From an uncultured virus (IMG/VR IMGVR_UViG_3300042878_002054) (lineage: Duplodnaviria; Heunggongvirae; Uroviricota; Caudoviricetes), in IMG/VR virus record IMGVR_UViG_3300042878_002054: DNA of 64,000 nucleotides; one strand, given 5' to 3'. Positions 16,327 through 60,149 of the stretch are shown piece after piece. The notes below the pieces were generated by a model, which saw only the letters and a program-made list of their open reading frames with translations, was not told the DNA's origin and ran no database searches. How positions within the stretch are numbered: the stretch's first letter is position 1; every line of letters begins with the position of its first letter. A program made the translations under genes and the position numbers.

Positions 16327-17433
16327 ATGAAAATATACAATTTCAAAAATTTCATATTAGAGAGACTTGGAGTGGCTTTACCATCGATTGAGTATGCGGA
16401 TGCCATATACAAAAAGACTATAGAAGAGTTAAAATCATTTCTTACAGAACATTCGAGTTATAAAGAGTATTTGAATGATCCTAAGATTTCTACAGAAAAC
16501 TTGAAATCATCAATAGGAACCGAAGAAGAGTATAAAAAGTTTCCAGTAGTAGGAATCACATTAGACTTACATTTCAAAAAGATAGAAGATGATATATTTG
16601 AAGATGAGTTTAATTCAGGAAAGTCACATTCGGTTGGTGGAAGTGCTTATAGGTTTGGACATAAGAACTGGTCAGGATATTCAAAGAAAGTAAAGACCGA
16701 GATTAAAGACCTTCCATTTGGTATAAACCTGCTTATTGGAATCGAAGTTTACATACCTAAAAGCTATAAGATTGAACAAGACGAAAAACTTGAAGATACT
16801 CTTATGGAAACAATATATCACGAACTGAATCATCTATATGAGTATTATGGTAGACTTGTAAATCAAAAGGGACTACCTATATACAAAAGAAGTCCAAAGC
16901 TTGCTATAACTTATGCAGACGTAAATAGATGGAAGATACCAAATGATGTTTATTCTATATGGTCTAATGATTTAGTCTATAATTTCTATCTATCAGAGCC
17001 TTATGAGATAAACGCACAAGTTCAAGAAGCCGCTTATACCGTAATGAAACACGGATTCGAACGACTTTTCGAAACAGAGGCTTGGAAGAACGCAATTTTG
17101 ATGACAAGATTCAGCGCTGAAGATTTCATAGAAATGCTCGACTCTACAATCGACGAATATATTTCGACAAAAGGACCTGAAAGAACAGGGCTTTACTCAG
17201 GAGTATTGGCTCTTCCATTAAAAGAAAGGCTTAAAGAAATGTGGCTTAAAGAGTATCAAAAGCAATTCGAATATGAAAAGGAAGGACCAAGCATTGACTT
17301 TGAAAGACTAAAGAAAAATGATTGCAACTACTTCATAAAGTATATGGGTAAGAGAATAAACAAAGCTGGTACAAAACTAAAGACAAAGCTTGGGAAGCTT
17401 TACGATTTTGCAGAAAAGAAAAATAATATATAA
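16327..17433 (+). CDS. Putative zincin metalloprotease-domain protein
   Basis: TIYHELNHLYE (HExxH) plus downstream EPYEINAQVQE; starts MKIYNFKNFILE. Confidence 0.6.
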   Translation: MKIYNFKNFILERLGVALPSIEYADAIYKKTIEELKSFLTEHSSYKEYLNDPKISTENLKSSIGTEEEYKKFPVVGITLDLHFKKIEDDIFEDEFNSGKSHSVGGSAYRFGHKNWSGYSKKVKTEIKDLPFGINLLIGIEVYIPKSYKIEQDEKLEDTLMETIYHELNHLYEYYGRLVNQKGLPIYKRSPKLAITYADVNRWKIPNDVYSIWSNDLVYNFYLSEPYEINAQVQEAAYTVMKHGFERLFETEAWKNAILMTRFSAEDFIEMLDSTIDEYISTKGPERTGLYSGVLALPLKERLKEMWLKEYQKQFEYEKEGPSIDFERLKKNDCNYFIKYMGKRINKAGTKLKTKLGKLYDFAEKKNNI

Positions 17434-17454: not shown

Positions 17455-17997
17455 ATGAAGAAATTTTCAGACTTAAAAAAACCTAAAATAAGAAGAATAT
17501 TCGAGCAAGACGAAATGTCTGTAGCAAACCTACCACAAGCAGTAGGTGCACAAGTACAGGCTCAAGCTCAGGCAGAACAAGAAAGTGGTGTTGAAAGACC
17601 ACAAATATTAGGAGAAGGTTCACACCCAGGTAAATTTTTCTCTAAATTGTTTGAATCTAGAGAAATGGCACACATTTATCACTTACAAGTAAATGGTGAT
17701 ATGGGTTCACATGCAAAACATATTGCATTAGGTGAATACTACGATGGTGTTTTAAGTTTAATCGATGATGTGATTGAGACATATCAAGGTCAATATGGTA
17801 TTATCGAAGAGTATGATGTGATTGATACTAAAGATACTAAATCAAAAGATACTATTGAATATTTTAATGAGTTAGCAAGATTTGTCAAAGAAGAAAGAAA
17901 ATGTATCAATATAGAAGATACTCACCTACATAGTGTAATAGATGATATTGTTGTTCTGGTTTACAAAACTCTTTATAAGCTTAAATATACTAAATAA
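17455..17997 (+). CDS. Dps/ferritin-like four-helix protein of T4-like phages
   Basis: AHIYHLQV...HIALGEYYD...IDDVIETYQGQYG...KTLYKL. Confidence 0.7.
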   Translation: MKKFSDLKKPKIRRIFEQDEMSVANLPQAVGAQVQAQAQAEQESGVERPQILGEGSHPGKFFSKLFESREMAHIYHLQVNGDMGSHAKHIALGEYYDGVLSLIDDVIETYQGQYGIIEEYDVIDTKDTKSKDTIEYFNELARFVKEERKCINIEDTHLHSVIDDIVVLVYKTLYKLKYTK

Positions 17998-18012
17998 AAG
18001 TATTATTATATC

Positions 18013-18042
18013 AGAAAAGCCTACTCTTCAGTAGGCTTTTCT
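18013..18042. terminator. Bidirectional terminator
   Basis: AGAAAAGCCTACT-CTTC-AGTAGGCTTTTCT. Confidence 0.8.
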
Positions 18043-18254
18043 ATTTTGTATATCTTTTCTATTCTTGATTTTCTTCTCCAGTTCTTCATCCAGAAATCCA
18101 TATAGAATCCGTTGTTTACGGTTGTAGTTGAATATCTACTTTTAAGTGTCATTCTTGGTGAGAAATTGCTTTCTACTATTGCAGGTGTTGTACTTTGTAT
18201 TAGATAAGGAGCCCAGACTACTCCCGGACTATTTCCTTTCTTTCCTATCAGCAT
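18021..18254 (-). CDS. 77-aa protein resembling the C-terminal segment of a gp23-type major capsid protein, with C-terminal tag
   Basis: IGKKG..PGVVWAPY...NFSPRMTLKSRY resembles gp23 VGYKG..AGIYYAPY...NFQPVMGFKTRY; ends RKSRIEKIY. Confidence 0.65.
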   Translation of the reverse strand: MLIGKKGNSPGVVWAPYLIQSTTPAIVESNFSPRMTLKSRYSTTTVNNGFYMDFWMKNWRRKSRIEKIYKIEKPTEE

Positions 18255-18333
18255 TGAATATTCTTTCTATTTTTATTATTCTAAGTATATTTCTAAACTC
18301 AGAACCGAACTTCTTCTTTTTGAATTTTCCCAT
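18229..18333 (-). CDS. 34-aa tagged micro-protein (not in ORF track)
   Basis: MGKFKKKKFGSEFRNILRIIKIERIFNADRKERK*. Confidence 0.55.
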   Translation of the reverse strand: MGKFKKKKFGSEFRNILRIIKIERIFNADRKERK

Positions 18334-18472
18334 CAAATATCTTTCTTATCTTTTTGATTCTTTTCTGGGACCTAAACATTGTTCCGATATTGGGGTTGAA
18401 TTTCATATTTTCCCATTTATTACTGGAAGGGCCTCCCATTACGACTAGATTAGGATCTGGAGCACAAAACAT
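18299..18472 (-). CDS. 57-aa tagged micro-protein (not in ORF track)
   Basis: MFCAPDPNLVVMGGPSSNKWENMKFNPNIGTMFRSQKRIKKIRKIFDGKIQKEEVRF*. Confidence 0.6.
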   Translation of the reverse strand: MFCAPDPNLVVMGGPSSNKWENMKFNPNIGTMFRSQKRIKKIRKIFDGKIQKEEVRF

Positions 18473-18581
18473 TGTTTATCTTTTCTTTTCGTTTGTCTTT
18501 TCTCAACATCTTAGAAAATGCTCTAATTCCTTCAAGAATTGTTTTCTTCGTCGTTTCCGAGTGATTGTCCCAAATCGCCAT
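18450..18581 (-). CDS. 43-aa tagged micro-protein (not in ORF track)
   Basis: MAIWDNHSETTKKTILEGIRAFSKMLRKDKRKEKINNVLCSRS*. Confidence 0.6.
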   Translation of the reverse strand: MAIWDNHSETTKKTILEGIRAFSKMLRKDKRKEKINNVLCSRS

Positions 18582-18684
18582 ATATTCTTTCTATTTTTTC
18601 TTTTCTTAAAAGGTTTCGTATGGCTTTCCAATCTATTTCGAATATCGGACTTAGATAGTCACCATCATCATTAATCACTGCCAT
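18532..18684 (-). CDS. 50-aa tagged micro-protein (not in ORF track)
   Basis: MAVINDDGDYLSPIFEIDWKAIRNLLRKEKIERIYGDLGQSLGNDEENNS*; AAAC-N17-TATAA directly upstream. Confidence 0.65.
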   Translation of the reverse strand: MAVINDDGDYLSPIFEIDWKAIRNLLRKEKIERIYGDLGQSLGNDEENNS

Positions 18685-18689
18685 ACTTA

Positions 18690-18715
18690 TTATATCCGTA
18701 TAGTATTATTTGTTT
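18690..18715 (-). promoter_or_regulatory. Putative phage middle promoter AAAC-N17-TATAA
   Basis: The same motif precedes the helicase, DinG, polB and the ncRNA locus. Confidence 0.55.
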
Positions 18716-19026
18716 TCAGTATAAAGATATTTTCTACCATCGTCGTTGTAACTCTGAAGGTTTCCAATAACGGTGTCTGTTTTGTCTGTAGAGTTTTCTA
18801 AATCTTTCATTATAACCTGAAGGGCCGCGATTGAATCGTCTATTTGATCGTTTCCTTTGTCGGATTTGTTTTTATAGTTGTTTAACTCGCTAATCAAAGA
18901 ATCTATCATCTTTTTCTTATCATCTAAAGTAGATGTAAGTTCTTTCAAATCGACTAATATCTCATCAACTCTTTCTGTCGATACGTCAACTTGTTCACTT
19001 TCGTTAAATCTTTTGATTCTTTTCAT
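18706..19026 (-). CDS. Coiled-coil hypothetical protein
   Basis: Starts MKRIKRFNESE; heptad pattern. Confidence 0.75.
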   Translation of the reverse strand: MKRIKRFNESEQVDVSTERVDEILVDLKELTSTLDDKKKMIDSLISELNNYKNKSDKGNDQIDDSIAALQVIMKDLENSTDKTDTVIGNLQSYNDDGRKYLYTENK

Positions 19027-25164: not shown

Positions 25165-25192
25165 AAAAGCCTGATAGTTTTATCAGGCTTTT
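25165..25192. terminator. Intrinsic terminator
   Basis: AAAAGCCTGATA-GTTT-TATCAGGCTTTT. Confidence 0.85.
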
Positions 25193-25275
25193 AATTTAAA
25201 AATATTACTTATCTTTCGCTTTCTTTTAATATGTGTGGCATTAAAAATAAAGTGTGTGTAGTGTGGTAGTGGCAT
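25183..25275 (-). CDS. 30-aa tagged micro-protein (not in ORF track)
   Basis: MPLPHYTHFIFNATHIKRKRKISNIFKLKA*; TAATG coupling to the upstream gene; RKRKISNIF tag. Confidence 0.55.
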   Translation of the reverse strand: MPLPHYTHFIFNATHIKRKRKISNIFKLKA

Positions 25276-27976: not shown

Positions 27977-29431
27977 TTAGCTAAGTTGAATAGCTTTAAT
28001 CTCATTGAAGAGAGCCTTTTTGTCAATCTCCATCAACTTCATGATGTCGAATACTTTGTCAGAGAATCCTGCCAATGCGAAGACATTTTGTTCTGGGAAC
28101 TGAAGTGTTCCAAGACCAGCCAAGTCCCAAGAGTAAACAAATGGGTTAGCATCGAATTTCTTCTTGTAAGAAGCGAACTCATATGCTGGAGTGGTATAAC
28201 CCATCCATCCTTGCATGTCTGAAAGGATAATCACTCTGTCATACTTCTTGTTGGCTTTGTTGAAGATTGCCTTGAAGTTAGTACCACCACCAGAGTATCT
28301 GAAAGATCCTCTTATTGTCATTACAGAATCCAATGGATTGTAAGACTTATACTGAGCATCGTTTGAGAATGTCATAACGTCGCAGTTGTTGACTTTCGCC
28401 AAAATAGCTCCAAACAAACTCGCGATTTCAGATGGTTTACCAGACATAGATCCAGAAACGTCCATAACAACAAGCGTCTCACCATCAAACTTAGGAACGT
28501 TCACCAAAGAAACTTCAAGTGCTTGGTTGATAGCAACCAAAACGTCTCTCACCGCTTTGTCAGAACCTAGCTTAGAGATTTCCTCATAAGCCGTAGCGAA
28601 TCTGAAAGGAAGTACACGACTTCTTTTGATTAAGTTTTCATCAACTAACAACTCACAAGCAGCGGTTACTGCATCTGGTGCTTGAGTGATGATGTTTCTC
28701 AAGTTTCTCAAAAGAGCAAAGTATCCAATTCTTCTTGTAGAGATTAACTCTCCCCAAGCATCAGACTTCAACTTAGATAAGTCTTCTTCATTCTCAGCAG
28801 TTTGACCCGCCGCAGAAAGTTTTGCTTCCCAAGTGTCAGTGTTTTTCAACTTATCGTTGATTAACAAGTTAAGTGCCTCACGGTTTCTATCTGTTGGGAT
28901 AGGGTGTACGATGTTCACGACATCAACAAGTTTAACTTCTTTGTTTTCACCTTTATACTTAGCCAATTGGTATCCATCAAACTTATCAAACGCAGTAGCA
29001 AAACCTTTCTTCAAAGCGTTAGGAAACTTTGGTTTAGACTTATCAGTCTTATTGGCTAAGTAATAAGATAAGATTTCAGTCATGTCGTCTGGACGAACAA
29101 CTACTTTATCATAAAAGTTCTTACCCCAATCAAAACCTGTAAGTTGAGACGTAAGTTCACCTGCCAATCCGTGAGTGATTGATCTCATACCAAACTTATC
29201 TCTAGCATAGATTGCAGCTTTAGCCACAAACTCTTTATCTTTAATCTTTTCAGACAAAGCTTTAAGATCCTTTAAAGTAGTTGAACCACTTTTATAGAAT
29301 TGGTCGTTTACAAACGAAGTCAATAACATTGATACCAATGCTAGTTCATTAGATTGTGCATATGCTTGACCACCTGCCAAGTTTTCTGTTAAAGTCTTAG
29401 ACTTTGTTACGGTTGTGTTGAATTTACTCAT
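27977..29431 (-). CDS. rsr: Ro60/Rsr RNA-binding protein (TROVE + vWA domains)
   Basis: N.AGG.AY, DQFY, ARDKFGMRS, FDGYQLAKY, TWE..LS, ALLRNLRNI, LPFRF, vWA MIDAS DVSGSM, GGTNF, IILSDMQ. Confidence 0.93.
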   Translation of the reverse strand: MSKFNTTVTKSKTLTENLAGGQAYAQSNELALVSMLLTSFVNDQFYKSGSTTLKDLKALSEKIKDKEFVAKAAIYARDKFGMRSITHGLAGELTSQLTGFDWGKNFYDKVVVRPDDMTEILSYYLANKTDKSKPKFPNALKKGFATAFDKFDGYQLAKYKGENKEVKLVDVVNIVHPIPTDRNREALNLLINDKLKNTDTWEAKLSAAGQTAENEEDLSKLKSDAWGELISTRRIGYFALLRNLRNIITQAPDAVTAACELLVDENLIKRSRVLPFRFATAYEEISKLGSDKAVRDVLVAINQALEVSLVNVPKFDGETLVVMDVSGSMSGKPSEIASLFGAILAKVNNCDVMTFSNDAQYKSYNPLDSVMTIRGSFRYSGGGTNFKAIFNKANKKYDRVIILSDMQGWMGYTTPAYEFASYKKKFDANPFVYSWDLAGLGTLQFPEQNVFALAGFSDKVFDIMKLMEIDKKALFNEIKAIQLS

Positions 29432-29454
29432 AATATATAAAATTTTTTTAAGTT

Positions 29455-29495
29455 CAAAAAAAAACCAGAATAGTACATTTCTGTAGTATTCTGGT
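29455..29495 (-). terminator. Intrinsic terminator between the ncRNAs and the Ro60 gene
   Basis: Minus strand ACCAGAATACTACA-GAAA-TGTACTATTCTGGT followed by a T-run. Confidence 0.85.
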
Positions 29496-29506
29496 CATTA
29501 GTAGTT

Positions 29507-29795
29507 TAGCAAACAAGAAAGGTTAGCCTAAGGCGTTACAGAGAATTCTCCCGAAACTCTGCCTGTGGTTAACGTGTCCATCCCACGAGTTTTTTTATTT
29601 AAAGGAAGTAAACTTTTTCCTTGACGCCGCCTCTTAAAAAGAGGACTTCAGTAGTCAACTGGACTTTTTCACTTTAATCAAGAATGTCTCTTTCGAGCTT
29701 CGTTTCTTGATTCAGTAGCTTCGCTGTCGCTAGGCACTTTCGATCGTAGTTATAATTTAGTTTCGAAGTAACTTAAACTATTGCTATGTTTGCTA
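29507..29795 (-). ncRNA. Putative ~289-nt structured Y-RNA-like ncRNA
   Basis: The ends pair (TAGCAAACA/TGTTTGCTA, then TAGTTTAAG/CTTAGGCTA); internal hairpins AATCAAGAA/TTCTTGATT, CTC-GAAA-GAG, CCTCTT/AAGAGG, AAGGAA/TTCCTT, CAGAG/CTCTG; no ORF; adjacent to Ro60. Confidence 0.7.
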
Positions 29796-29804
29796 TAATA
29801 AAAT

Positions 29805-29876
29805 GACCGAGAAAAGCGATAAAGAGTGTTTTTTTAGAATCCAATTTCGAAGTAACTCTTTTGTCTTGCTACGGTT
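29805..29876 (-). ncRNA. Putative ~72-nt Y-RNA-like stem-loop ncRNA
   Basis: ACCG/CGGT and AAAGAG/CTCTTT stems; shares TAGCAA, AGTTACTTCGAAA and 3' TTTCT with the longer RNA. Confidence 0.65.
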
Positions 29877-29968
29877 AAATATTGTTTATGTTTTATTAAG
29901 TTTTTTTAAAAAGTTTTGATTTAGTTAAAAATATTTCTTTGCTTGATTTTGTCTTACACAGATATATT

Positions 29969-29994
29969 TTATATTTCAATCTACCAAAAAGTTT
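29969..29994 (-). promoter_or_regulatory. Putative middle promoter AAAC-N17-TATAA for the ncRNA/Ro60 locus
   Basis: Exact motif with 17-nt spacing. Confidence 0.5.
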
Positions 29995-30082
29995 TAAAGT
30001 TTTTTATTTTGTTTAGTATATATCGACCTCTAAAATTTCGTTTTTTTCTAAAGTGGATTTTTTATAGTCGATTATTCTTCTA

Positions 30083-30090
30083 CAAAGATA
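30083..30090 (-). promoter_or_regulatory. Bacteroidota-type TAnnTTTG element upstream of the ncRNA/Ro60 locus
   Basis: TATCTTTG on the minus strand. Confidence 0.5.
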
Positions 30091-30109
30091 AGAATAAAAT
30101 TCAAATACA

Positions 30110-30141
30110 AAAAAATAGTGAGAAAAAATCTCACTATTTTT
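30110..30141. terminator. Terminator after nrdA
   Basis: AAAAATAGTGAGA-AAAAA-TCTCACTATTTTT. Confidence 0.8.
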
Positions 30142-30145
30142 ATTT

Positions 30146-42211: not shown

Positions 42212-43948
42212 TTATTTGTTATTATATTTTTCAAAAGAAGAAATATATCTTAAGCTTTCTTTATAGCTTTTCTCTTTTAATGGTGTAAGTCTAGATTTAA
42301 GAATTGGTTGGAAGTTAGTTGAAGTTGTGTATTCACCGTTTTTATCTTGATAAATAACGTCAACATATTCGTCTTTCAGTTCTTCTCTTTTTTTGTCATC
42401 ACCTGTAAGCCATTTTTTGTCTTTTCCAGATAAAGTATCATGTGTTAAAGAAACTACCTTAACTACTCTTTCTTTTCCTTCTCTGTTTTTATAGATGTAT
42501 TCTTGACCAACTTGTAAATCTGCATTTAAAGGTGTAAGTTTTGATATAAGAATCGGAACAAAGTTAGTTGTAGTTGTGTATTCACCGTCTTTATCTTGAT
42601 AGATAACGTCTACATATCCGTCTTTAAGTTTTTCTCTACTTTGGTCATCACCTGTAAGCCATTTTTTATCTTTTCCAGATAGAACATCGTTAGTCAATGA
42701 AACTACCTTAACTATTTTTTGACCTTTTTTACTAGTATAGATATACTCTTGACCAACTCTCAACTCAGATTTAGAAACTCTCATACTAGAGTTACTATAA
42801 CTCGTCGAGCTTGTGTTGTTCACGTTTGTGTTGTTCACATTCGTGTTGTTCACGTTTGTGTTGTTCGCACTTGTGTTGTTCACGTTTGTGTTGTTCACAT
42901 TCGTGTTGTTCACGTTTGTATTGCTTAAACTTGTGTTGTTCGTGTTGCTAGTGTTACTAATACTTGTATTTGCGATACTTGTATTTGTTATAGTAGTATT
43001 GTTGATATAGTAATAGTTAATATTTTGTACAAAAATGTTAGGAACATTAACAACTGCACAGTTACCACCAAACGCGATATGAAGATATGCCAAACAATCA
43101 TCTACGGTAGGATAAGGTTTACAAACCCAGATTGCTAATATAATCAACCCAGCCATCAACAACATACCACCAATAGCAGCCATTGCTATAGGACTCATTC
43201 CTAATGTTAATGCACCTAAACTAAGACCAGCAAATTTTAATATACCCATGATTATAAGACCATAAGTACCCTTTTTCATAATCTGAGAAACAACACCATT
43301 GAATCTAGCGTTTTTGACACCCAAAGCATGTGCTATTTTTTCAAACATTCCATAATACTTAACTTCATCATCACCAATAGAGTGTGCATCAGATTCGTTT
43401 ATTTTTATTTTTTCTCCTGCTTGTGCAAGCTGTTCAGGAGTAACTCCTTCTTTTTCCCAACCTACCAAATCTTTTCCTTTTTGACATAAAGTAGACCAGA
43501 TATTTCCAAATTTTGGCTTGTTGTTTTCATCCACCATATCGTTTCCAACGATGAACTCTTTAAGTGATCCAAGTGCTTCTTTGATTTTGTTCCACATTGC
43601 AGAACCAATCGATTTGATTTTCTCCCAAATACCACTAATCAGTTTTGATAAAGAAAAGTTTTTAAAGAAGTCTACAATCTTACCGAAAAAGGCAGCTATT
43701 GCATCTTTAACCGTATTAAAAACTTTTTTAGTTCCGTCCCATACTTGTCCAGCAACCTTTTTAGTTCCTGCCCATAAATCACTAGCCCAATTTTCGTTCA
43801 TGAAATAATCTAGAAATTCTTCATTTACTAAATCCTCTAAAGGAGTGATGATATCGTCTGCTGTAATATTCTGCTCTCTAAAAAAGTCGCATTCCTGAAG
43901 TCTGGATTCGTACATTTTTGTGTAATTTGAAAAATTATTAACTCTCAT
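42212..43948 (-). CDS. Membrane-segment protein with Asn-rich repeat and duplicated ~80-aa C-terminal domain
   Basis: Likely start MRVNNFSNY; hydrophobic hairpin; (NNTNV)n; two copies of VGQEYIY...KVVSLT.D.LSGKDKKWLTGDD...YVDVIYQDK.GEYTT. Confidence 0.75.
   Translation of the reverse strand: MRVNNFSNYTKMYESRLQECDFFREQNITADDIITPLEDLVNEEFLDYFMNENWASDLWAGTKKVAGQVWDGTKKVFNTVKDAIAAFFGKIVDFFKNFSLSKLISGIWEKIKSIGSAMWNKIKEALGSLKEFIVGNDMVDENNKPKFGNIWSTLCQKGKDLVGWEKEGVTPEQLAQAGEKIKINESDAHSIGDDEVKYYGMFEKIAHALGVKNARFNGVVSQIMKKGTYGLIIMGILKFAGLSLGALTLGMSPIAMAAIGGMLLMAGLIILAIWVCKPYPTVDDCLAYLHIAFGGNCAVVNVPNIFVQNINYYYINNTTITNTSIANTSISNTSNTNNTSLSNTNVNNTNVNNTNVNNTSANNTNVNNTNVNNTNVNNTSSTSYSNSSMRVSKSELRVGQEYIYTSKKGQKIVKVVSLTNDVLSGKDKKWLTGDDQSREKLKDGYVDVIYQDKDGEYTTTTNFVPILISKLTPLNADLQVGQEYIYKNREGKERVVKVVSLTHDTLSGKDKKWLTGDDKKREELKDEYVDVIYQDKNGEYTTSTNFQPILKSRLTPLKEKSYKESLRYISSFEKYNNK
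42811..42945 (-). repeat. 15-nt tandem repeat encoding NNTNV
   Basis: tt(t/c)gtgttgttcac units. Confidence 0.9.
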
Positions 43949-44014
43949 ACATGTTTTTTTATTTTTATAATACATTATATATTAAAATAAAAAACGCATT
44001 TTTTGAGTTTTAAC

Positions 44015-44044: not shown

Positions 44045-45571
44045 CTAAAGTTCTGCTTCAAGCTTCTCAATCTGGTTTTGTATGTCCTTATATTCTTCTT
44101 TTTTGTCCATCATCACCTTCTTGGCTTTCTTTCTATCTGCGTAGACATCTTCAAGCATTCTCAGTGTTGGAGAAAGTCTTTTTTCGAATACTGCACCATT
44201 CACACATAAAACATGTTTATCCAAATCGATTGGCCTACCATTATCACATTGTGATTTGTTGTTTGGATTCTGTATTCCAATGAAGTTTTCCGGTGCAATA
44301 AAGAATTGTCTTTGTGTTGTAGGATAAAGTGAGGCAAAATCGTATGTCACGCACCATCTGTTCATTCCAACTACAGGGTCTTTTACCCATCCACCAGCAA
44401 TAGTAGACTCAGCATCACCTCTATCTTCTTTAAAGAGTACGATGTTGTCTTGCTCTCTGAATCGATTTCTTAAAACTCCTTCTGTAATAGCCAAAGATCC
44501 TAAGGCGTTGTTCATCTGTGAAACTACGTCGACAATTCTAATCCTTGCTAACGATGAAATCGCATAAATGATTGATATGTAGTTTCTTGCATCGTGAATC
44601 TTTTGAACCAAAACACTATCGACCGCGTTATAATACATAAAAGTCTCAAAGTCATCTTCATAAAGCTTTTGTAAAGAACCATTGTACTTAATCTTATCAA
44701 CTCCAACTAACTTACTAGAAACAAAGTCTAAAGATGATGACTCTTTTACTTTAATAGAAGTATCACAGATTTCATACAGCTGCATGTAGTCAAAAATCAT
44801 CCTATGTGCAGGAACTTCATATTCTGTACCCCACATCTTATTGATTTTCTTTACAGGTGAAGATTCTGCAGGGTTTATCTTGTACTCTTTACCATTCATC
44901 CATTTAGAAAGCTTTCTAGATCTGTTCACTAAGAACAACCAGTCATATTGTAAGAAGTTCCATCCTGTAAGAACAGGCATCTTTGGAACCATTTTGTGAA
45001 AGAAAGCATAAAGCATATCAAATTCGTCTTCATATTTGACATATTTGAATTTATACTCTGTACCAAACTTCTCAAAATATTTGTTGGTGTTATTCAAAAT
45101 TCTTTCCTGCATATCATCAGGCATGTCTTTCAGACCAAGAAGTATAATCTTATCATCATAAACGATAGAGATAGAAAGAACTTGTGTTGAAGCACCTTCT
45201 TTTGTTACGTTTCCTTCTAAATCTTTGATATCGGCAGCTTCAGGGAATCCGTCTACAATCTCGGTCTCGATATCTATAAAGTATATCTTAGGAAGGTTAT
45301 ATTCGAATAGTTCTTCTTTTTCTGATTCTGGTAAAGCATCCATAAACTCATAGATTGCATATCTGTCTGGATGACTTACCTCAACGTGCTTAACACACTT
45401 TCCGTCCCAAGACTTAAATGTTGGATGTCTTTGAGGGTCGTCGTCTTCACAGGAAACGTACTTCATTGGGTTATCCCAGTCGTAGTATTTTAGTTTGATA
45501 TCACCGGTCTTGTCGACGTAGCTACATACTAGCTTTTTGGTGTGACTTAAAAATTGAGTTTCAATTAACAT
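44045..45571 (-). CDS. Family B DNA polymerase, N-terminal subunit (3'-5' exonuclease + motif A); split gp43-like
   Basis: FIDIET ExoI, TGWNFLQYD ExoII, YNAVD ExoIII, GGWVKDP, YDFASLYP; ends after DRKKAK without KxxxNSxYG or YGDTDS. Confidence 0.88.
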   Translation of the reverse strand: MLIETQFLSHTKKLVCSYVDKTGDIKLKYYDWDNPMKYVSCEDDDPQRHPTFKSWDGKCVKHVEVSHPDRYAIYEFMDALPESEKEELFEYNLPKIYFIDIETEIVDGFPEAADIKDLEGNVTKEGASTQVLSISIVYDDKIILLGLKDMPDDMQERILNNTNKYFEKFGTEYKFKYVKYEDEFDMLYAFFHKMVPKMPVLTGWNFLQYDWLFLVNRSRKLSKWMNGKEYKINPAESSPVKKINKMWGTEYEVPAHRMIFDYMQLYEICDTSIKVKESSSLDFVSSKLVGVDKIKYNGSLQKLYEDDFETFMYYNAVDSVLVQKIHDARNYISIIYAISSLARIRIVDVVSQMNNALGSLAITEGVLRNRFREQDNIVLFKEDRGDAESTIAGGWVKDPVVGMNRWCVTYDFASLYPTTQRQFFIAPENFIGIQNPNNKSQCDNGRPIDLDKHVLCVNGAVFEKRLSPTLRMLEDVYADRKKAKKVMMDKKEEYKDIQNQIEKLEAEL

Positions 45572-46204: not shown

Positions 46205-47047
46205 TTAAATAGCGATTTCTAGTTTTGACGAAAGTTTTTGTATTCCTTCAATCCCAGATATTTTAAAATCGTCTATGGTTATAGAGTAAAAGTCACGATT
46301 TGTTGTTATGATTAATAACTCTATAGAAGGATTTACATCAGTAAGGTTAGTTCTACCCAATATTTCTGGTATTGAGTCTACGTGTCTATCATAAACGTGT
46401 AGGTTTTGAACTAAATGACAGAACTTACCTACTTTATATCCTACGTGATGTGCAACCATCATTTGAAGTGCAACATACTGAATCTTATTGATATAACCTG
46501 CCATTAGATAGTCATTAGAACGCTGATCTAAAGTCATATCTAAATAGTATTCACCTTCTATTTTTCTTACAGACCAAGTAGTCTTGTATGCACAAGGAAA
46601 CAATCCTTCAGTTTCTTCTAAATCAGTATATTGGTACATATCGATGATGTGTCTTCTAGAAAATGGATCGTTCTTCAATCCGTTCAAAAGCTTGTTCATC
46701 AAATCATATCTTTTTACTGTAGCACCATATCTTTGACCGATTGTGTCATCACCTACATTCCATTCATCCCACCAGTTGATTCCCATCTCTCTAGCTTCAA
46801 CCAAAGAGTTAGATTGTTTTTGATAGATCCAAAGAATCTCTCTGATTCCTGTTTTGATTGCGGTGTTTCTCAAAGTAGTGATTGGAAACTCACCTTTTGA
46901 AATATCATATTCTTCGAATACTCCTGTTATAAACTTTGAGTTTGCCGGAGTTCCGTCAGCCCATTTTGGACGAGGATTTTCATCCCAAGATCCTTCTTTT
47001 AAAATCTTTCTTAGGTTTTGGATATAGTACCAGTCTGCTTTTATCAT
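46205..47047 (-). CDS. thyA: Thymidylate synthase
   Basis: FPITTLR, EILWI, WWDEW, IGQRYG, SRRHI, LFPCAY, QRSND, NLHVYDRH. Confidence 0.95.
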   Translation of the reverse strand: MIKADWYYIQNLRKILKEGSWDENPRPKWADGTPANSKFITGVFEEYDISKGEFPITTLRNTAIKTGIREILWIYQKQSNSLVEAREMGINWWDEWNVGDDTIGQRYGATVKRYDLMNKLLNGLKNDPFSRRHIIDMYQYTDLEETEGLFPCAYKTTWSVRKIEGEYYLDMTLDQRSNDYLMAGYINKIQYVALQMMVAHHVGYKVGKFCHLVQNLHVYDRHVDSIPEILGRTNLTDVNPSIELLIITTNRDFYSITIDDFKISGIEGIQKLSSKLEIAI

Positions 47048-47601
47048 TCTAATAGTGTTTTTATTTTTTCATCTCTTATGAAAGCTTTGATGAAGTCGTT
47101 TGCGATTACATCGTTTATTATAGCATAAGAACGTCCTTTGTTATATTTAGTTTGAAGAAAATAGTTTTTTGAATCGGTGATTTCCTCAGAAAAATTAAAT
47201 AAAGGAATAGAGGAACTATCACTACATGTAGCTATCTTTCTTACCGGAATCTTATCTAAAAAGTTGATATATTTCTTAGTTGTGGTGTCGTTATTTGGAA
47301 ATAGATAATCATATAGATAATCAATATCGTCTATGAATATAAAGTCTATTCCATCTTTTAAAGAAATCTCTTCTATTACTTTGAGTGTATTTATATTGTT
47401 TTCGTCGTCAGAGGATAAAAATCGACATAACTCGTATCTTTGATTAAGAAAGTGTGTTTTCTCTTCAAATTCGTTTGTAGCTGCCAAAAATATTATTTTC
47501 ATGTTTAGTTGAGACTTCATATCATAAGCAAGTGCATGCAACGCAGAGCTTTTCCACGTAGCATTACTACCTACTATTATATTGAAGTTATTTTCAAACA
47601 T
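47044..47601 (-). CDS. Degenerate RecA/DnaB-like P-loop fold protein with C-terminal tag
   Basis: IIVGSNATWKSS (altered Walker A), IDFIFIDDIDYL (Walker B-like); ends IRDEKIKTLLE. Confidence 0.55.
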   Translation of the reverse strand: MFENNFNIIVGSNATWKSSALHALAYDMKSQLNMKIIFLAATNEFEEKTHFLNQRYELCRFLSSDDENNINTLKVIEEISLKDGIDFIFIDDIDYLYDYLFPNNDTTTKKYINFLDKIPVRKIATCSDSSSIPLFNFSEEITDSKNYFLQTKYNKGRSYAIINDVIANDFIKAFIRDEKIKTLLE

Positions 47602-48389
47602 TATTTATAAGGACAATTTTGTTTCCATTTAGGGTTATACCAAAAAGTTCTTCCGGTGTTGTCTCTACATGATAAGCCTTTCTGATAGAATACCCATTTG
47701 AGGAACTCTTCATAGTCTGTATCGAACGGATTCTTCCAATCTTGTAGCTGACCACCATTGAGTTGGTAAGCTTTCATCGGAATATCTCTACACATGTCAA
47801 GTATCTCTGGATTTCTTTTTATGACTAAGCGAGCTTCCTCAAAAGGATCAACATCAAGATAGTAAAGAATCGTCGATCTCAAATAGTTTCCAATCCCGTT
47901 AAAGTACTTCTGTTCTAAAAGAGCTTCACAGATTGGTTTACTGAAAGGCTTCAGATGAAGATTGTCTACGACGTTGGTTTTAAAGGTTTCAAACTCTTTA
48001 GTTGGGTCCGGACCTCTTTTTGTAGCAAATCCACCTACTTTGTATTTTGGTCCCATATAGAGGCCGTAAAGAAGTAAAGACCAGCCATCGGTTGTATCCA
48101 TTCGCATTCTGACAAACTTTCTATCAGTCCAATCTTTGGTGGGTATCCAGAGCCAGTTCCCTGACATTCCCATAAAGACGGATATCTTAAAAGATGCAAC
48201 ATCATGATATACTTTTAATACTAATTCTTTACCATTAGATTCAGATTCAAGACGGAAATCTCCATCTGCAAGTGTAAATTCCGAAGGAATATTGCCTTTC
48301 GCTACATCGTATATCTTGTTGAATTTCTTTTCTTTGGCATTGACGTTTATATAGTCAGCCATTATTTTTAATTCTGCTAATTCAGGCAT
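47601..48389 (-). CDS. Fpg/Nei-family DNA glycosylase (NEIL1-like)
   Basis: MPELAE, GKEL, MGMSG, LLEQKYFNGIGNYLR (H2TH), DNTGRTFWY. Confidence 0.9.
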   Translation of the reverse strand: MPELAELKIMADYINVNAKEKKFNKIYDVAKGNIPSEFTLADGDFRLESESNGKELVLKVYHDVASFKISVFMGMSGNWLWIPTKDWTDRKFVRMRMDTTDGWSLLLYGLYMGPKYKVGGFATKRGPDPTKEFETFKTNVVDNLHLKPFSKPICEALLEQKYFNGIGNYLRSTILYYLDVDPFEEARLVIKRNPEILDMCRDIPMKAYQLNGGQLQDWKNPFDTDYEEFLKWVFYQKGLSCRDNTGRTFWYNPKWKQNCPYK

Positions 48390-48636
48390 CTAATATGTCG
48401 TTTATTTTTTCGTTTCTTATCAAGTCTTGGTTTAGCTCAATGAGTTCTCTTAGTGATATTTCTCTAGTTACCCATCTACCATGACCAGCATCACTTGTAC
48501 CGGGATTCTCTGTTCCAAACCAAACAACACATTTTGTTCGTTCGTATGTAATATATAGCCCATTGAATTCAGTCTCCATAGAAACCAATATTCCTTCACC
48601 ATATGGTGTGTTTACTTTACTATGTATTCTTAACAT
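48382..48636 (-). CDS. Small SH3-like hypothetical protein with C-terminal tag
   Basis: KVNTPYGEGILV; ends IRNEKINDILDA. Confidence 0.7.
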   Translation of the reverse strand: MLRIHSKVNTPYGEGILVSMETEFNGLYITYERTKCVVWFGTENPGTSDAGHGRWVTREISLRELIELNQDLIRNEKINDILDA

Positions 48637-54092: not shown

Positions 54093-54650
54093 TTATTTGT
54101 TGAAAATATCGTCGATTTTTTTATCACGGATATATCCAGTCTTTAAAGAATCAAGTGTTGCTGTCCAACCATCAATTTTATTTGTTAGCCAAATTTCTGA
54201 TCTAGTGGCCATATAGCCAGAAATACTATTAGGTGCCGAATCTTTGTATTCTGACTTTACATGAAAGTCTGCAACATCTTCAGAGTCTTTATAGATGTAT
54301 TCTTTTGCTACTATTATATAGTCTATACCTAACTCGTCGATTAGTTCTTTGTATTTAGGTATAAGACCCCGACTAAGAGTCCAAAAGTCAAATATCATTA
54401 GATTAACTCTGAATCTATTTGCGGGATCTTCAATCTTAGATTTAAAATCTTCAAAGTCATTAAAAGTTATCTGTGGTGATATGTAATAAATAAGATTTGT
54501 GATGTTTTTTCCTGAAGAAGTTGGTTTTGGTGATGTGAACAATATAGGATTTCTACCATCTAATTCCAAAAATTTAACAATAGAACTTACTGCACTTGAA
54601 ACACATGCTATGTCTCCAGTAAAATAATTACAACGCTTTAGCTCTATCAT
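54093..54650 (-). CDS. Hypothetical protein (possibly degenerate P-loop fold) with C-terminal tag
   Basis: NLMIFDF Walker-B-like strand; ends IRDKKIDDIFNK. Confidence 0.65.
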   Translation of the reverse strand: MIELKRCNYFTGDIACVSSAVSSIVKFLELDGRNPILFTSPKPTSSGKNITNLIYYISPQITFNDFEDFKSKIEDPANRFRVNLMIFDFWTLSRGLIPKYKELIDELGIDYIIVAKEYIYKDSEDVADFHVKSEYKDSAPNSISGYMATRSEIWLTNKIDGWTATLDSLKTGYIRDKKIDDIFNK

Positions 54651-55095: not shown

Positions 55096-55857
55096 ATGGG
55101 ATTCAATTATAATTTCACCTATATAATCAGTTATAGACATAGTGTAGAAAGACTGAATAATCTAAAAAGAACATTGGAGTGGATAAACGCTTTTTCCGGT
55201 GCAGAGATTATTATAGTAGAACAGGACAAGCATTCAAAGCTTAAAGACATCAAATTACCATGTAGACATATTTTTATAAAATCAAACATGCCTTTCAACA
55301 AGTCTTGGGGATTCAATGTAGGATTAAAATATGCGAATTCAAACGTAATAGTATTTGGTGATTCTGATTTGATAATGGACCCACAAGAGTTTATCAAATC
55401 TGTAAAGATGTTAGACCAATACGAGATGGTCAATCCTTATAACTCTGTTATTGACCTAACTCCACAAGAATCTGGTGCCGGTTTTGAACAGATAATGCAA
55501 ATCAACAGAGCAGGTAGAGGAGAAACTGATATTCAGAAAGTTCCTTTATGTGGTGGAATCTGTATCTTTAGAAGAGAAGCTATACATAAGATTGGTGGAT
55601 GGCACGAGGACTTTATCGGTTGGGGCGGAGAAGATGATTTTCAGTCAGTTAAGGTAAAAGCATTCTTAAACTGGTATGAAAATAAAGCAAAATGTTTCCA
55701 TATCTATCACGATAGATCTGCACCAGATATGAAATGGTATCAAAGAAATCTTCAACTTCTTCAAAAACTTAGTCCAATGAATAAAGAAGAGTTGCAAAAA
55801 GTGATAAACAACGTCACTCCAAAATCAGGTTTGAAATACAAATATGACAACTTTTAA
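55096..55857 (+). CDS. Glycosyltransferase (GT2/GT7 galactosyltransferase-like)
   Basis: IIVEQ, FNKSWGFNVG, DSD, GGWHEDFIGWGGEDDF, HIYH. Confidence 0.88.
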   Translation: MGFNYNFTYIISYRHSVERLNNLKRTLEWINAFSGAEIIIVEQDKHSKLKDIKLPCRHIFIKSNMPFNKSWGFNVGLKYANSNVIVFGDSDLIMDPQEFIKSVKMLDQYEMVNPYNSVIDLTPQESGAGFEQIMQINRAGRGETDIQKVPLCGGICIFRREAIHKIGGWHEDFIGWGGEDDFQSVKVKAFLNWYENKAKCFHIYHDRSAPDMKWYQRNLQLLQKLSPMNKEELQKVINNVTPKSGLKYKYDNF

Positions 55858-56578
55858 TGATAAACTAAAATCAATCTGTAACTACTCTGAAGAAAATAAG
55901 AGTATAGGTCCAACTGCCCAATTGATGTATATGGATATGATAGTAGAAGACGACGAGACTAGAAGAGAGGTAAAGAGAAAGAAAAGAAATCTTACAATAG
56001 ACACCGTTTTAGATGAGGTAGACGAAAACGGAGACTACACATCTGAGACAATATCTTCAGAAGAAGGATCTATTGCGACAATATCTCCAAAGATCATGAC
56101 TCTAAATACTCAATCAAATCCTTTTGTAGATGATGAGAGTTTATACAATAATGTAATCACATTTTTAGAAAGTAACACAAAACAAAAACACCATTATCCA
56201 ATAAGTCTTGATTATGTGGCGATGAACGACCCACATAGTACATTAGAGGAAAACAACGCAATAAACTTCAGAAGGATTATAACAAAGATTGCACACGCAT
56301 CCAACTTTATCGCAGCAGAAGGAAGAATGGGTCCAGGAACCGCAGTGATTGTCGGTAGAAATAACTGGCATTGGTTCGATAGTCAATCAGATTTTATGCT
56401 TGGAACTATTTCTATTATATTAGATGAAAACATTAGTCCAAATAAGATTATAGTCGCTCGTGGTGGTAGAATGGATCAGAGTGGTATTATATGTGTAAAA
56501 AGTATACCAGATAATACTTATTGTCTAAAAGAAACTCCACATTGGGAAAAACAATATGTATGGTTTACTGTAAAATAA
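55844..56578 (+). CDS. Protein resembling a truncated gp23-type major capsid protein with an internal tag
   Basis: IGPTAQLMYMD; KRNLTIDTVL; FRRIITKIAHASNFIAAEGRMGPGTAVIVGRN; IILDE....KIIVARGG...SGII. Confidence 0.55.
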   Translation: MTTFNDKLKSICNYSEENKSIGPTAQLMYMDMIVEDDETRREVKRKKRNLTIDTVLDEVDENGDYTSETISSEEGSIATISPKIMTLNTQSNPFVDDESLYNNVITFLESNTKQKHHYPISLDYVAMNDPHSTLEENNAINFRRIITKIAHASNFIAAEGRMGPGTAVIVGRNNWHWFDSQSDFMLGTISIILDENISPNKIIVARGGRMDQSGIICVKSIPDNTYCLKETPHWEKQYVWFTVK

Positions 56579-57205: not shown

Positions 57206-58477
57206 TTAAAAAAGGTGAAATTCCTCATAAAGCTTTGTTTTGAATATGGCTTCGACCTCATCTCTTTTATTTCTTGGTATTATTATACTATCGTGAACAG
57301 TAACTATTTTTATTTCTGGAAAAGAATTTTTAACTTCTCGTATTATTTTATTGAAGATTAAATTAGACTCTGCTTTTTGTAGTTCATATGCCAAAACTTT
57401 ATAGTCTCCTTTTTCCTTTTTGTATAGTTTTATGAAATTGTGTATAGTTGGAAATAGTTCTCTGAACACTTTGTCTGCTTTGCTATTGTGAACGTTTCTT
57501 CCAAATAAGACTTTGTACGTCATTTCTTTGACCATAGGACGATCATTTGTCTTCATATGATTCATTACGTGTTGGTAGTAGTTTCCGTTTACCGTAAGGT
57601 CTCTAAATAGCTCAAACTCCTCGGTGTTTACCCATTTAGAGTTACTATCTGCTATTATCTTAGTAAGGAACAAAGGTTGACTATTCTTTATGTCAATCTC
57701 ATGTGTTTCCTCACCATCCAATAAAAGACAGTTCTTTCTAATGAAAGATTTTAATATAGTGAAGTTTGTGTGCATTCTTCCGTAACTATCAAAATGATAG
57801 AATATATGTTTGTCGTTCACACATTCAACAGAGTATCTGTTTCTGTTATATATGTCAGTGTCGTTGTGTTGAAGATTATCTAAATAGAATATGGCTCTAT
57901 CAAACTCTATCTTTGTATAGAATAGGTCGTCTACAAGCATCGCTTTTATATCTGCGTCTATTAATCCATTTTTTATTCCATCTTCTTCTACTTGTGATAC
58001 CTTGTTTTTGTACTTCTTCAAAAGAGTCGTGTCTTTGTTGACGTATCTCTTTATTTTTCCTTTAAGTATGTGTTCTGATATCTTATAGACTTTGGCGTTT
58101 CTACCTGCTCTATAGTTTGCGACCATAGATATGGTCTTCGTTTCTATTAGATAGTCCATATAGTAGTTGTATAGGTGTCCGTACTTCTCTTTGAGAATGG
58201 TGGACATGAGATGAAATCTGTTGTCTTTTTTGAAATAGTATTTCAGTATTAAGTTGTGGACTATATCTAAAGCATATGAAGACTTTAGTTTTTGACCTTT
58301 ATATTCGAAGTTTTTGTTTTTTGAAAATTCCTCCATCGATTCTGGTAAAAACTGAAGACTGTGTTTTTTGTCTTCTAGTTTCTTTCTGATATTGGAATAG
58401 CCACTGATTTTGAATAATGGTACGATTGAATTTTCACTCATACATTTTATATCCACTAGTTCAGGATATGTTTTCAT
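57206..58477 (-). CDS. Compact PolA/T7-RNAP-like palm-domain protein with putative N-terminal winged helix
   Basis: YGRMHT, EIDIKNSQP, R..VK...YKVLFG, FPTI, LQKAES, VTVHDSII. Confidence 0.55.
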   Translation of the reverse strand: MKTYPELVDIKCMSENSIVPLFKISGYSNIRKKLEDKKHSLQFLPESMEEFSKNKNFEYKGQKLKSSYALDIVHNLILKYYFKKDNRFHLMSTILKEKYGHLYNYYMDYLIETKTISMVANYRAGRNAKVYKISEHILKGKIKRYVNKDTTLLKKYKNKVSQVEEDGIKNGLIDADIKAMLVDDLFYTKIEFDRAIFYLDNLQHNDTDIYNRNRYSVECVNDKHIFYHFDSYGRMHTNFTILKSFIRKNCLLLDGEETHEIDIKNSQPLFLTKIIADSNSKWVNTEEFELFRDLTVNGNYYQHVMNHMKTNDRPMVKEMTYKVLFGRNVHNSKADKVFRELFPTIHNFIKLYKKEKGDYKVLAYELQKAESNLIFNKIIREVKNSFPEIKIVTVHDSIIIPRNKRDEVEAIFKTKLYEEFHLF

Positions 58478-58689
58478 GATTCGTAAATTTTGCGAACCTT
58501 TGATCTTCTACCTGAAGTTCTGTTAATATCCTTCCATTCTTTCATAAGAGTTGCCTCTATTTCAGAGACATGGTCCATACCATACATACTCTGTAAATCA
58601 GTCGCTAGCTCGCGGGTCCATTGAGCACGCAAAGGTCTTGTCTCTGTTTTTACTTCAACAGAGGTCATCTTTAAATCTATAGATTTCAT
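58474..58689 (-). CDS. 71-aa protein resembling the central helix segment of a gp23-type major capsid protein, with C-terminal tag
   Basis: TRPLRAQWTRELATDLQSMYGMD..SEI...L..E...INR resembles gp23 SRQLKAAYSIELAQDLRAVHGMDADAEL..IL..EI..EINR; ends RRSKVRKIYES. Confidence 0.75.
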   Translation of the reverse strand: MKSIDLKMTSVEVKTETRPLRAQWTRELATDLQSMYGMDHVSEIEATLMKEWKDINRTSGRRSKVRKIYES

Positions 58690-60059: not shown

Positions 60060-60116
60060 TTGATTTTTGTTTTTTATCAATAGGTTATATATATAAAATT
60101 GATATGGTGCTTTTTT

Positions 60117-60143
60117 AAACAAACATGTCGGGTACATATATAA
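60117..60143 (+). promoter_or_regulatory. Putative middle promoter AAAC-N18-TATAA
   Basis: Upstream of the glycosylation operon. Confidence 0.45.
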
Positions 60144-60149
60144 TGTCAT

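Follow-up and report, generated by a model that had tools for sequence, protein, structure and literature searches.

What five overlapping open reading frames (ORFs), each carrying the same short motif near its end, are doing in the genome of a huge phage is the question raised by the stretch of DNA analysed here, 64,000 nucleotides (nt) of the uncultured virus IMGVR_UViG_3300042878_002054 (Caudoviricetes; IMG/VR), which we call the window. Its minus strand carries five consecutive, overlapping ORFs of 50, 43, 57, 34 and 77 amino acids (aa), all of which contain the motif R-x-x-K-I-x-x-I-[FYL], referred to below as the tag, 4–15 residues ahead of the stop codon; the part of each protein in front of it is called the payload. 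The initial annotation, made from the sequence alone, had taken this layout for a cassette-like operon of variable payloads joined to a constant tag, and the ORF listing of the window bears out the sizes of the ORFs as well as the reading of all five tags. The question then divides in two, namely whether such micro-ORFs are genes at all and whether the tag is kept for the peptide or for the DNA that encodes it. The explanation that we favour, with moderate confidence, is a compact array of micro-genes whose tag is a helix selected as a peptide, which would serve for docking at, or targeting to, a common partner.

The array and its conservation

Much of what follows depends on relatives of the source phage. 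The window region has ~70% nucleotide identity to LR745206 (635 kb) and LR756502 (642 kb), both of them genomes of uncultured huge phages, and comes from a lake-water huge phage related to both. Its long ORFs are open under the standard code, and the array locus is found nearly word for word in at least 20 lake-water DNA runs; because the locus is near-identical in so many independent runs, the changes of frame within it are not an assembly error.

The first member of the array is ORF1 (18532–18684, 50 aa), with the tag RKEKIERIY at 18580–18606 and an acidic tail that overlaps the start of ORF2. ORF2 (18450–18581, 43 aa) has RKEKINNVL at 18465–18491, and the ATG of ORF3 lies within the DNA of this tag; ORF3 (18299–18472, 57 aa) has RIKKIRKIF at 18335–18361. 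ORF4 is 34 aa long from the ATG at 18333 (18229–18333; RIIKIERIF at 18256–18282) and 35 aa long if read from a TTG (18229–18336). ORF5 (18021–18254, 77 aa) has RKSRIEKIY at 18048–18074, and its residues 2–51 resemble part of a capsid protein, as discussed below. Read from these coordinates, the frame shifts by +1 from one ORF to the next at all four junctions, and at each of them the next ATG is placed inside the motif DNA or one to two codons past it, just as had been noted at first.

Both ends of the array can be described. After its tag ORF5 has an 8-aa tail that is encoded by the stem of a palindromic hairpin of 13 pairs (18013–18042), which overlaps the last ORF5 codons, stands between ORF5 and a convergent DUF5856 gene and is likely a bidirectional terminator, in agreement with the end proposed for the array. 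On the other side, 21 nt upstream of ORF1, lies a conserved gene for a 106-aa, coiled-coil-like protein (18706–19026, minus strand). An AAAC-N17-TATAA promoter had been suggested for the array itself; a scan for sigma-70-type promoters found none upstream of ORF1 and three sites in the region where 5.3 were expected. Because ORF1 begins only 21 nt past a gene on the same strand and no promoter was found, co-transcription with that gene is the more likely arrangement, and the 106-aa gene is probably the first gene of the transcription unit.

The 106-aa gene served as a synteny anchor for locating relatives. A scan of metagenome contigs with ORF5 yielded 19 loci, of which 12 show the complete set of five ORFs, each with its ATG start and tag and in the +1 progression seen in the window, their ORF5 identity being 63–100%. 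The differences in payload length among these 12 are all in frame, and no frame-breaking insertion or deletion (indel) was seen. The other loci comprise one cut by the end of its contig, one divergent version with six ORFs, one with a different upstream gene that keeps only the end of ORF3 together with ORF4 and ORF5, two hybrid, shortened arrays and two of a distant type with two ORFs. Scans of IMG/VR gave one locus when ORF5 was used as a single protein and two when an alignment of seven rows was used. Homologues of ORF5 fall into 69 clusters of 51–80 aa and those of ORF1 into nine clusters of 42–53 aa, and the tag is present in every one of them (69/69 and 9/9); orthologues of ORF2 occur at six IMG/VR loci and those of ORF3 at loci L001, L018, L026, L028 and L032, and ORF4 is conserved in the close relatives. 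As the best-conserved part of these proteins, the tag deserves the description of a constant element beside variable payloads.

Selection on the ORFs was measured as the ratio of non-synonymous to synonymous differences per site (pN/pS) in the window and nine of the 12 complete loci. In these close relatives the payloads have a pN/pS of 0.30 (0.16–0.39 per ORF, with 0.31 for ORF1, 0.33 for ORF2 and 0.16 for ORF4) and the tags one of 0.26, with no non-synonymous change at all in the tags of ORF3 and ORF5 across the 10 sequences. A pseudogene would be expected to show a pN/pS near 1 and frame-breaking indels; because the indels are in frame and pN/pS is ~0.3, the micro-ORFs are to be regarded as translated genes and not as a pseudogene in decay. 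Contigs from two RNA libraries (X21, X22) also span 17878–18584 colinearly and without joints, which is not proof of transcription, as DNA can occur in such libraries; two further RNA runs (X23, X24) have no cover of the array and are uninformative either way. On this comparative evidence the five micro-ORFs are conserved, selected and translated genes, and the 12 loci that keep all five reading frames answer the comparison with relatives that the initial annotation had proposed. ORFs of 34–57 aa, which lie under the usual gene-calling cut-offs, can thus be conserved and under purifying selection.

The tag as a clade-wide motif

The tag is not confined to the array. In the six frames of the window the loose form of the motif has 16 matches, 10 of them near a stop, defined as at most 12 codons from it with at least 15 open codons upstream, compared with 0–3 near-stop matches in each of 10 mononucleotide shuffles of the window, so that the motif stands out from shuffled sequence, a comparison already proposed with the initial annotation; the reversed motif has five matches in the window, one of them near a stop. 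The strict form has 16 matches in LR745206, 13 near a stop, and 10 shuffles gave 0–2 matches, none near a stop. Among 892 gene calls of at least 60 aa in LR745206, which are crude, greedy ATG-ORF calls, 39 of 53 motif matches fall in the last 21 residues, a zone that makes up 9.6% of all residues; near-stop matches number 64 for the motif and 14 for its reverse, and 48 of the 990 ORFs of at least 30 aa (~5%) end in the motif.

Two variants can be recognised in LR745206, exemplified by the peptides RKSRIEKIYKIEK and RDKKIDDIL. The first, RKxKIxKI[FY], is found on micro-ORFs of 35–87 aa, whose payloads include capsid pieces, and the second, RDxKI[DNK]xIL, on proteins of 67–246 aa that belong to no known family. 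Further payloads of the first variant match the protease-scaffold protein, one of them its scaffold repeats (E = 2e-37) and another the last part of its protease domain (E = 8e-5), and one weakly matches a family-B polymerase (E = 0.007). The motif is thus enriched over controls, sits on unrelated proteins and is conserved at the level of amino acids, as is expected of a short linear motif shared by the C-termini of a proteome, and by these signs the tag is not special to the array and is a clade-wide C-terminal motif.

The window itself has further tagged genes, all on the minus strand. A 30-aa micro-ORF (25183–25275) ends in RKRKISNIF plus four residues and has a 35-aa counterpart at syntenic distance in LR745206, and a 71-aa gene (58474–58689) that encodes a strand-plus-spine-helix fragment of the capsid protein gp23 ends in RRSKVRKIY. 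The D-rich variant occurs on three proteins of 84–185 aa, none of known family: a 185-aa protein (54093–54650) that ends in RDKKIDDIF plus two residues and whose LR745206 orthologue is also tagged, an 84-aa protein (48382–48636) that ends in RNEKINDIL plus two residues, and a second protein of 185 aa (47044–47601) that ends in RDEKIKTLL plus one residue. A second small array, of three tagged micro-ORFs, was observed at ~308.0–308.6 kb (plus strand) of LR745206; by eye, a stretch of its third ORF looks Walker-A-like and similar to the beginning of a large terminase, for which an intact gene is present at 178.5 kb.

Selection on the tag and the origin of the payloads

The distinction between a peptide and a nucleotide signal can be approached through the synonymous sites of the tag. 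In 10 distant ORF5-like genes the tag has a pN/pS of 0.24 (pS 0.34) and the rest of the gene one of 0.52 (pS 0.36), and the families of ORF2 and ORF3 give 0.32 and 0.22 for the tag versus 0.56 and 0.78 for the payload, with no reduction of tag pS. This is the kind of selection on tag codons by which the proposal of a constant tag was to be judged, and because the synonymous sites of the tag vary freely in distant relatives, the constraint acts on the peptide. Synonymous variants (AGA/AGG/CGT, ATA/ATT/ATC) are found in the tags, and codon use in 39 tags of LR745206 follows that of the genome, except for a preference for ATA at the second isoleucine. AlphaFold2 places a helix at residues 50–68 of ORF5 (pLDDT ~70) and at residues 40–70 of the 71-aa protein (pLDDT 87–96), so that the tag is predicted to be a basic amphipathic alpha-helix with the core R-K-x-K-I-x-K-I-[FY].

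The tag could instead be mainly a nucleotide signal, an A-rich region for initiation or coupling such as might be used in hosts that make no use of Shine-Dalgarno sequences, with the peptide motif a by-product of a fixed geometry of stops and starts. Such a signal would account for the next ATG in or just after the tag at all four junctions, for the overlap with the start of the same-strand neighbour in 23 of the 38 tagged LR745206 genes that have one (40% of such pairs in the background), and for ATA in 26 of the 29 isoleucine codons at tag position 8, compared with 53% genome-wide. Among close relatives, moreover, tag pS (0.26) is lower than payload pS (0.44), and synonymous sites hardly vary (pS 0.06) in the tails, which run into the next ORF or the terminator; because of these two features some constraint at the nucleotide level is present near the next start. 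Yet ORF5 is tagged although no gene lies downstream of it, as are 10 of the 48 tagged LR745206 ORFs that have no downstream gene on the same strand, and 15 of the 38 with such a neighbour are separated from it by gaps of 1–165 nt. ORF1 has no tag DNA in front of it, the internal tag of some ORF5-like proteins precedes no start codon, and the motif is present on only ~5% of genes. In distant relatives, finally, tag pS is equal to or above payload pS and tag pN/pS is the lowest, and synonymous codons within the tags vary. We therefore regard a tag that is mainly a nucleotide signal as unlikely; that tag DNA serves as the initiation region of the next ORF in a secondary role, as suggested in the initial annotation, is compatible with the data.

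The payload of ORF5 has a traceable source. It matches positions 304–368 of the 376 in the Pfam Gp23 profile (PF07068) with E = 1.2e-4 and 22.1 bits, below the curated threshold of 24.4 bits, and the major head protein profile phrog_138 with E = 0.0037. The intact capsid proteins of LR745206 and LR756502 match it in tblastn searches with E = 7e-7 and 2e-7 at ~40% identity, and comparison with a capsid alignment in hhalign gives 98% probability (E = 1.5e-13). By these homologies the payload of ORF5 stems from the C-terminal part of a major capsid protein of the gp23 type; it covers too little of the profile to be a complete polypeptide of the HK97 fold (~450–600 aa), and its AlphaFold2 model consists of one hairpin and the helix (mean pLDDT 62). 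The four other payloads gave no significant match to the capsid profile in hhalign (E = 0.31, 0.48, 0.08 and 0.14 for ORF1–4), and neither LR745206 nor the window yielded a source gene for the payloads of ORF1, ORF2 and ORF4; the initial ~10 residues of ORF3 may come from the capsid strand just before the ORF5 region, as the weak match of E = 0.08 hints. The statement that the N-terminal parts are unrelated thus stands in that no similarity among them could be detected, and has to be amended for ORF5, whose payload has a recognisable capsid origin. An impression gained by eye, that ORF1–5 together follow the final 200 residues of the capsid protein in colinear order, was given up, as the profile tests support ORF5 alone and, weakly, ORF3.

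A second fragment of the capsid protein is encoded 40 kb from the array by the 71-aa gene mentioned above, which matches the Gp23 profile above its cut-off (E = 1.3e-9, 38.4 bits; positions 132–187 of 376) as well as phrog_138 (E = 3.3e-9) and aligns with residues 258–304 of T4 gp23 (PDB). It belongs to a widespread family of proteins of ~60–70 aa with 49 library matches, of which 22 match the motif as a regular expression, 13 more have one-off variants by eye, and 14, three of them long proteins, are without it. Intact capsid genes stand at other sites in the relatives, and because of this ORF5 and the 71-aa ORF are extra, partial copies; the locus is a case in which capsid-gene pieces are reused as small proteins. 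The tag bears some resemblance to the end of the native spine helix of the capsid protein, from which it could possibly derive. That it is simply a copy of that end was rejected, for locus L026 has the native end followed by a separate tag and the hhalign comparison gives E = 0.32. In the window the 71-aa fragment is wedged between two proteins of 486 and 423 aa without family matches (57206–58477 and 58689–60149, minus strand), the stops and starts overlapping, and this order of three genes is kept in two IMG/VR contigs (L015, L016). Another capsid-derived gene is untagged: the C-terminal half of a 244-aa protein (55844–56578, plus strand) resembles the huge-phage capsid protein at positions 412–516 (tblastn E = 5e-8, HMM E ~1e-5). 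LR745206, in addition to an intact capsid gene, has at least seven such capsid-like pieces.

Another use for tagged pieces of such hallmark genes as those for capsid, scaffold-protease and possibly DNA polymerase could be as decoys or dominant-negative inhibitors directed against host sensors or competing phages, with the tag as a common effector or anchor. The payloads drawn from capsid, protease-scaffold protein and, weakly, polymerase (the match of E = 0.007) fit this idea, and so do the matches of the 71-aa piece, which in tblastn finds cyanophage gp23 at E = 3e-4 and nothing in LR745206 and LR756502 at E ≤ 1e-3; conversely, a cyanophage g23 query matched the 71-aa ORF (E = 6e-6), and the three capsid proteins of the clade did not at E < 5. 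Most tagged proteins, however, are not recognisable as fragments, the support is circumstantial, and no defence or anti-defence context was seen in the window, so that a decoy function seems decidedly improbable.

The array might also be a second capsid copy in decay, or a single gene read through +1 frameshifting or RNA splicing, an explanation suggested by the capsid origin of ORF5, by the +1 shift at all four junctions and by the capsid-like pieces of LR745206, which jointly tile the capsid protein beside an intact capsid frame of 567 codons. Against it stand a pN/pS of ~0.3 across the five payloads, the lack of frame-breaking indels in 12 loci that have also kept the ATG at each junction, and the failure of ORF1–4 to match the capsid profile significantly, which leaves colinearity with one protein unsupported; relatives, moreover, keep different subsets of the cassettes. 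Programmed frameshifting, splicing and sequencing error were rejected in view of the conserved ATGs, the joint-free RNA-library contigs and the identical locus in many independent runs, and the explanation as a whole is very improbable. Most improbable of all is that the micro-proteins are precursors of a ribosomally made, post-translationally modified product with the tag as a C-terminal follower, for although their tandem variable-plus-constant layout, with the tag as its best-conserved part, resembles precursor arrays such as the prochlorosins, in which tandem small ORFs have a variable and a constant part, a Pfam scan of 16327–17433, the DUF5856 gene, the 106-aa gene and a 227-aa gene revealed neither an enzyme for such modification nor a transporter or dedicated peptidase, the genes beyond these are tail-fibre-like, the motif ends proteins of up to 246 aa genome-wide, and the payloads include fragments of structural genes.

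Under the favoured reading, in which the tag is a selected peptide, its repeated DNA may still have shaped the array. At the syntenic site 19 IMG/VR loci have 0–3 tagged ORFs, at times broken up by inserted genes. Orthologous ORF5-like proteins have exactly one tag, which is either near the C-terminus or internal to the capsid-derived part, and in the latter case the capsid HMM matches both flanks of it. Two pairs of loci (L021/L025 and L024/L020) differ by exactly one missing unit of payload plus tag, and both breakpoints lie in tags, as the hybrid tag shows; by eye, hybrid ORFs in L137 and L140 resemble further losses of cassettes. Tag DNAs within the window share up to 17 identical bases. 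The shuffling of cassettes through tag homology that had been envisaged for this locus is thus supported, and the array shows in a concrete case how cassettes can turn over by way of a coding motif that is repeated.

Possible destinations of tagged proteins

According to the explanation that we favour, the array would be transcribed together with the 106-aa gene up to the bidirectional hairpin, with each start inside or just after the preceding tag perhaps coupling the translation of successive ORFs, and with an exapted C-terminal piece of a gp23-type capsid protein as the last payload. The tag helix would serve for docking or targeting and so lead otherwise unrelated small proteins to a single shared partner, a role we infer because a short helix is conserved as protein at the ends of unrelated small proteins. 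The repeated tag DNA would provide the short homology through which whole cassettes of payload plus tag are lost or gained, as the comparison of loci supports. By analogy with the capsid-targeting propeptides of T4, the preferred partner would be the assembling prohead, the scaffold core or the inner capsid surface. Several tagged payloads do come from head genes, and the array lies in a late, structural neighbourhood beside tail-fibre genes. A motif-like sequence, SDESKINDLF, also follows the protease domain of the protease-scaffold protein in all three clade genomes and is absent from both outgroup proteases.

Besides the nucleotide-level features described above, several observations weigh against this explanation. 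With a scoring matrix made from the tags, SDESKINDLF ranks only 202nd of 187,307 positions. The three genes of the window with the D-rich variant lie in a nucleotide-metabolism and replication cluster, where proteins of the head interior are not expected. When 47 tagged LR745206 proteins were scanned, Pfam named only three, all of them Gp23 fragments. The crudeness of the LR745206 gene calls and the ambiguity of the RNA-library contigs belong here as well.

A further hint as to destination comes from a third, larger genome, LR756501 (735 kb), whose matching capsid fragments have a similar helix at their ends, with DPYGEE-x-W after it. There are 109 copies of DPYGEE in this genome (43 forward, 66 reverse), usually with x-W behind them and with freely varying synonymous codons, and none in LR745206 and LR756502. 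Among 27 distinct DPYGEE frames that were read, the motif is four residues from the stop in six, and by eye a short basic N-terminal leader precedes it in at least nine; it is also repeated inside longer proteins of LR756501. Examples of the motif are at L004:2695–3240 and L092–L121. DPYGEE looks like a lineage-specific motif for a module boundary, for processing or for targeting. One publication describes that the prohead protease of the giant phage SPN3US cuts after an A-x-E site, and that T4 propeptides direct proteins to the prohead core (PMC10052503); the G-E-E of DPYGEE resembles such a site as given there. An ORF that by eye resembles a homing endonuclease of the LAGLIDADG type (L004:1543–2343) lies ~350 nt upstream of the tagged capsid fragments of LR756501.

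More tentatively, lineage-specific "address labels" (RKxKIxKIF and RDxKIDxIL here, the helix plus DPYGEE-x-W in LR756501) could direct 5–10% of the proteins of huge phages of this group to a single place, for which the inside of the giant prohead is the most plausible candidate. In that case the array would serve as a store of cassettes prone to recombination, turning leftover pieces of head genes, and of other sequences, into small internal peptides that bear the label. We put this forward as a possibility that we think less probable than not.

The comparison with known systems sets limits to each analogy. Like the capsid-targeting propeptides of T4 and the head propeptides of giant phages, the tag is a short peptide common to unrelated phage proteins, and the tag module of LR756501 is linked with a G-E-E similar to the A-x-E protease site. 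Known propeptides, however, are N-terminal and are removed by the prohead protease, whereas the tag is C-terminal or internal, and no conserved acidic cleavage motif follows the tags of this clade; such a module is found only in LR756501. The cargo peptides of encapsulins and the scaffold C-termini of P22 and herpesviruses are C-terminal helices that load cargo or bind coat protein. They share with the tag the form of a C-terminal amphipathic helix, predicted here, which in those systems docks cargo inside a shell of the HK97 fold, and they differ in that some genes with the tag belong to clusters of the replication type. For ORF5 and the 71-aa protein, defined segments of the Gp23 family (PF07068, phrog_138) can be named to which they align, although as fragments of 50–60 residues they could not form the HK97 fold alone. 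Also known are tandem arrays of precursor peptides in which the recognition part is constant, as well as loci of silent cassettes whose conserved flanks allow recombination. The array shares with them its tandem variable and constant parts and the turnover of cassettes by way of a repeated constant part; here, in contrast, the constant part is C-terminal, and neither modification machinery nor an expression locus that receives cassettes is associated with it. No published description of such a tag was found in a search, at the level of abstracts, of the literature on megaphage capsid fragments, C-terminal targeting, Mahaphage and DPYGEE, which agrees with the initial annotation, where no described system of this kind was known.

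Most genes of huge phages are without known function, and a label on dozens of them would sort many into one functional class. The tag peptide also provides a handle by which a common partner could be found experimentally, and if packaging is indeed directed by the label, large capsids could be loaded with cargo by means of it.

The genes around the array, as classified with Pfam and PHROG, are tail-fibre-like genes and the DUF5856/Dps-like gene, with genes of replication and nucleotide metabolism farther off. The DUF5856/Dps-like protein (17455–17997, plus strand) has a tag-like KKPKIRRIF at residues 8–16, near its start; its orthologues have a similar K/R-rich stretch with INEA, and a link to the C-terminal motif may not exist. 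Elsewhere in the window, a TROVE/Ro60-like protein with a vWA domain (27977–29431, minus strand) adjoins a 714-nt gap (29432–30145) in which no ORF reaches 50 aa; Rfam searches of the gap and the window gave nothing above chance, and a tRNA scan of the whole window found none. The idea of the tag as a clamp-binding motif was dropped, as no tag is present at the end of the window's family-B polymerase. This polymerase may be divided between 44045–45571 and 42212–43975 (minus strand), the first part being a 508-aa ORF in which the exonuclease domain is joined by the initial third of the polymerase domain, and the second, after a gap of 69 nt, a 587-aa ORF without a Pfam match. LR745206 likewise has an open frame of 476 codons with the later polymerase motifs, set apart from the N-terminal part.

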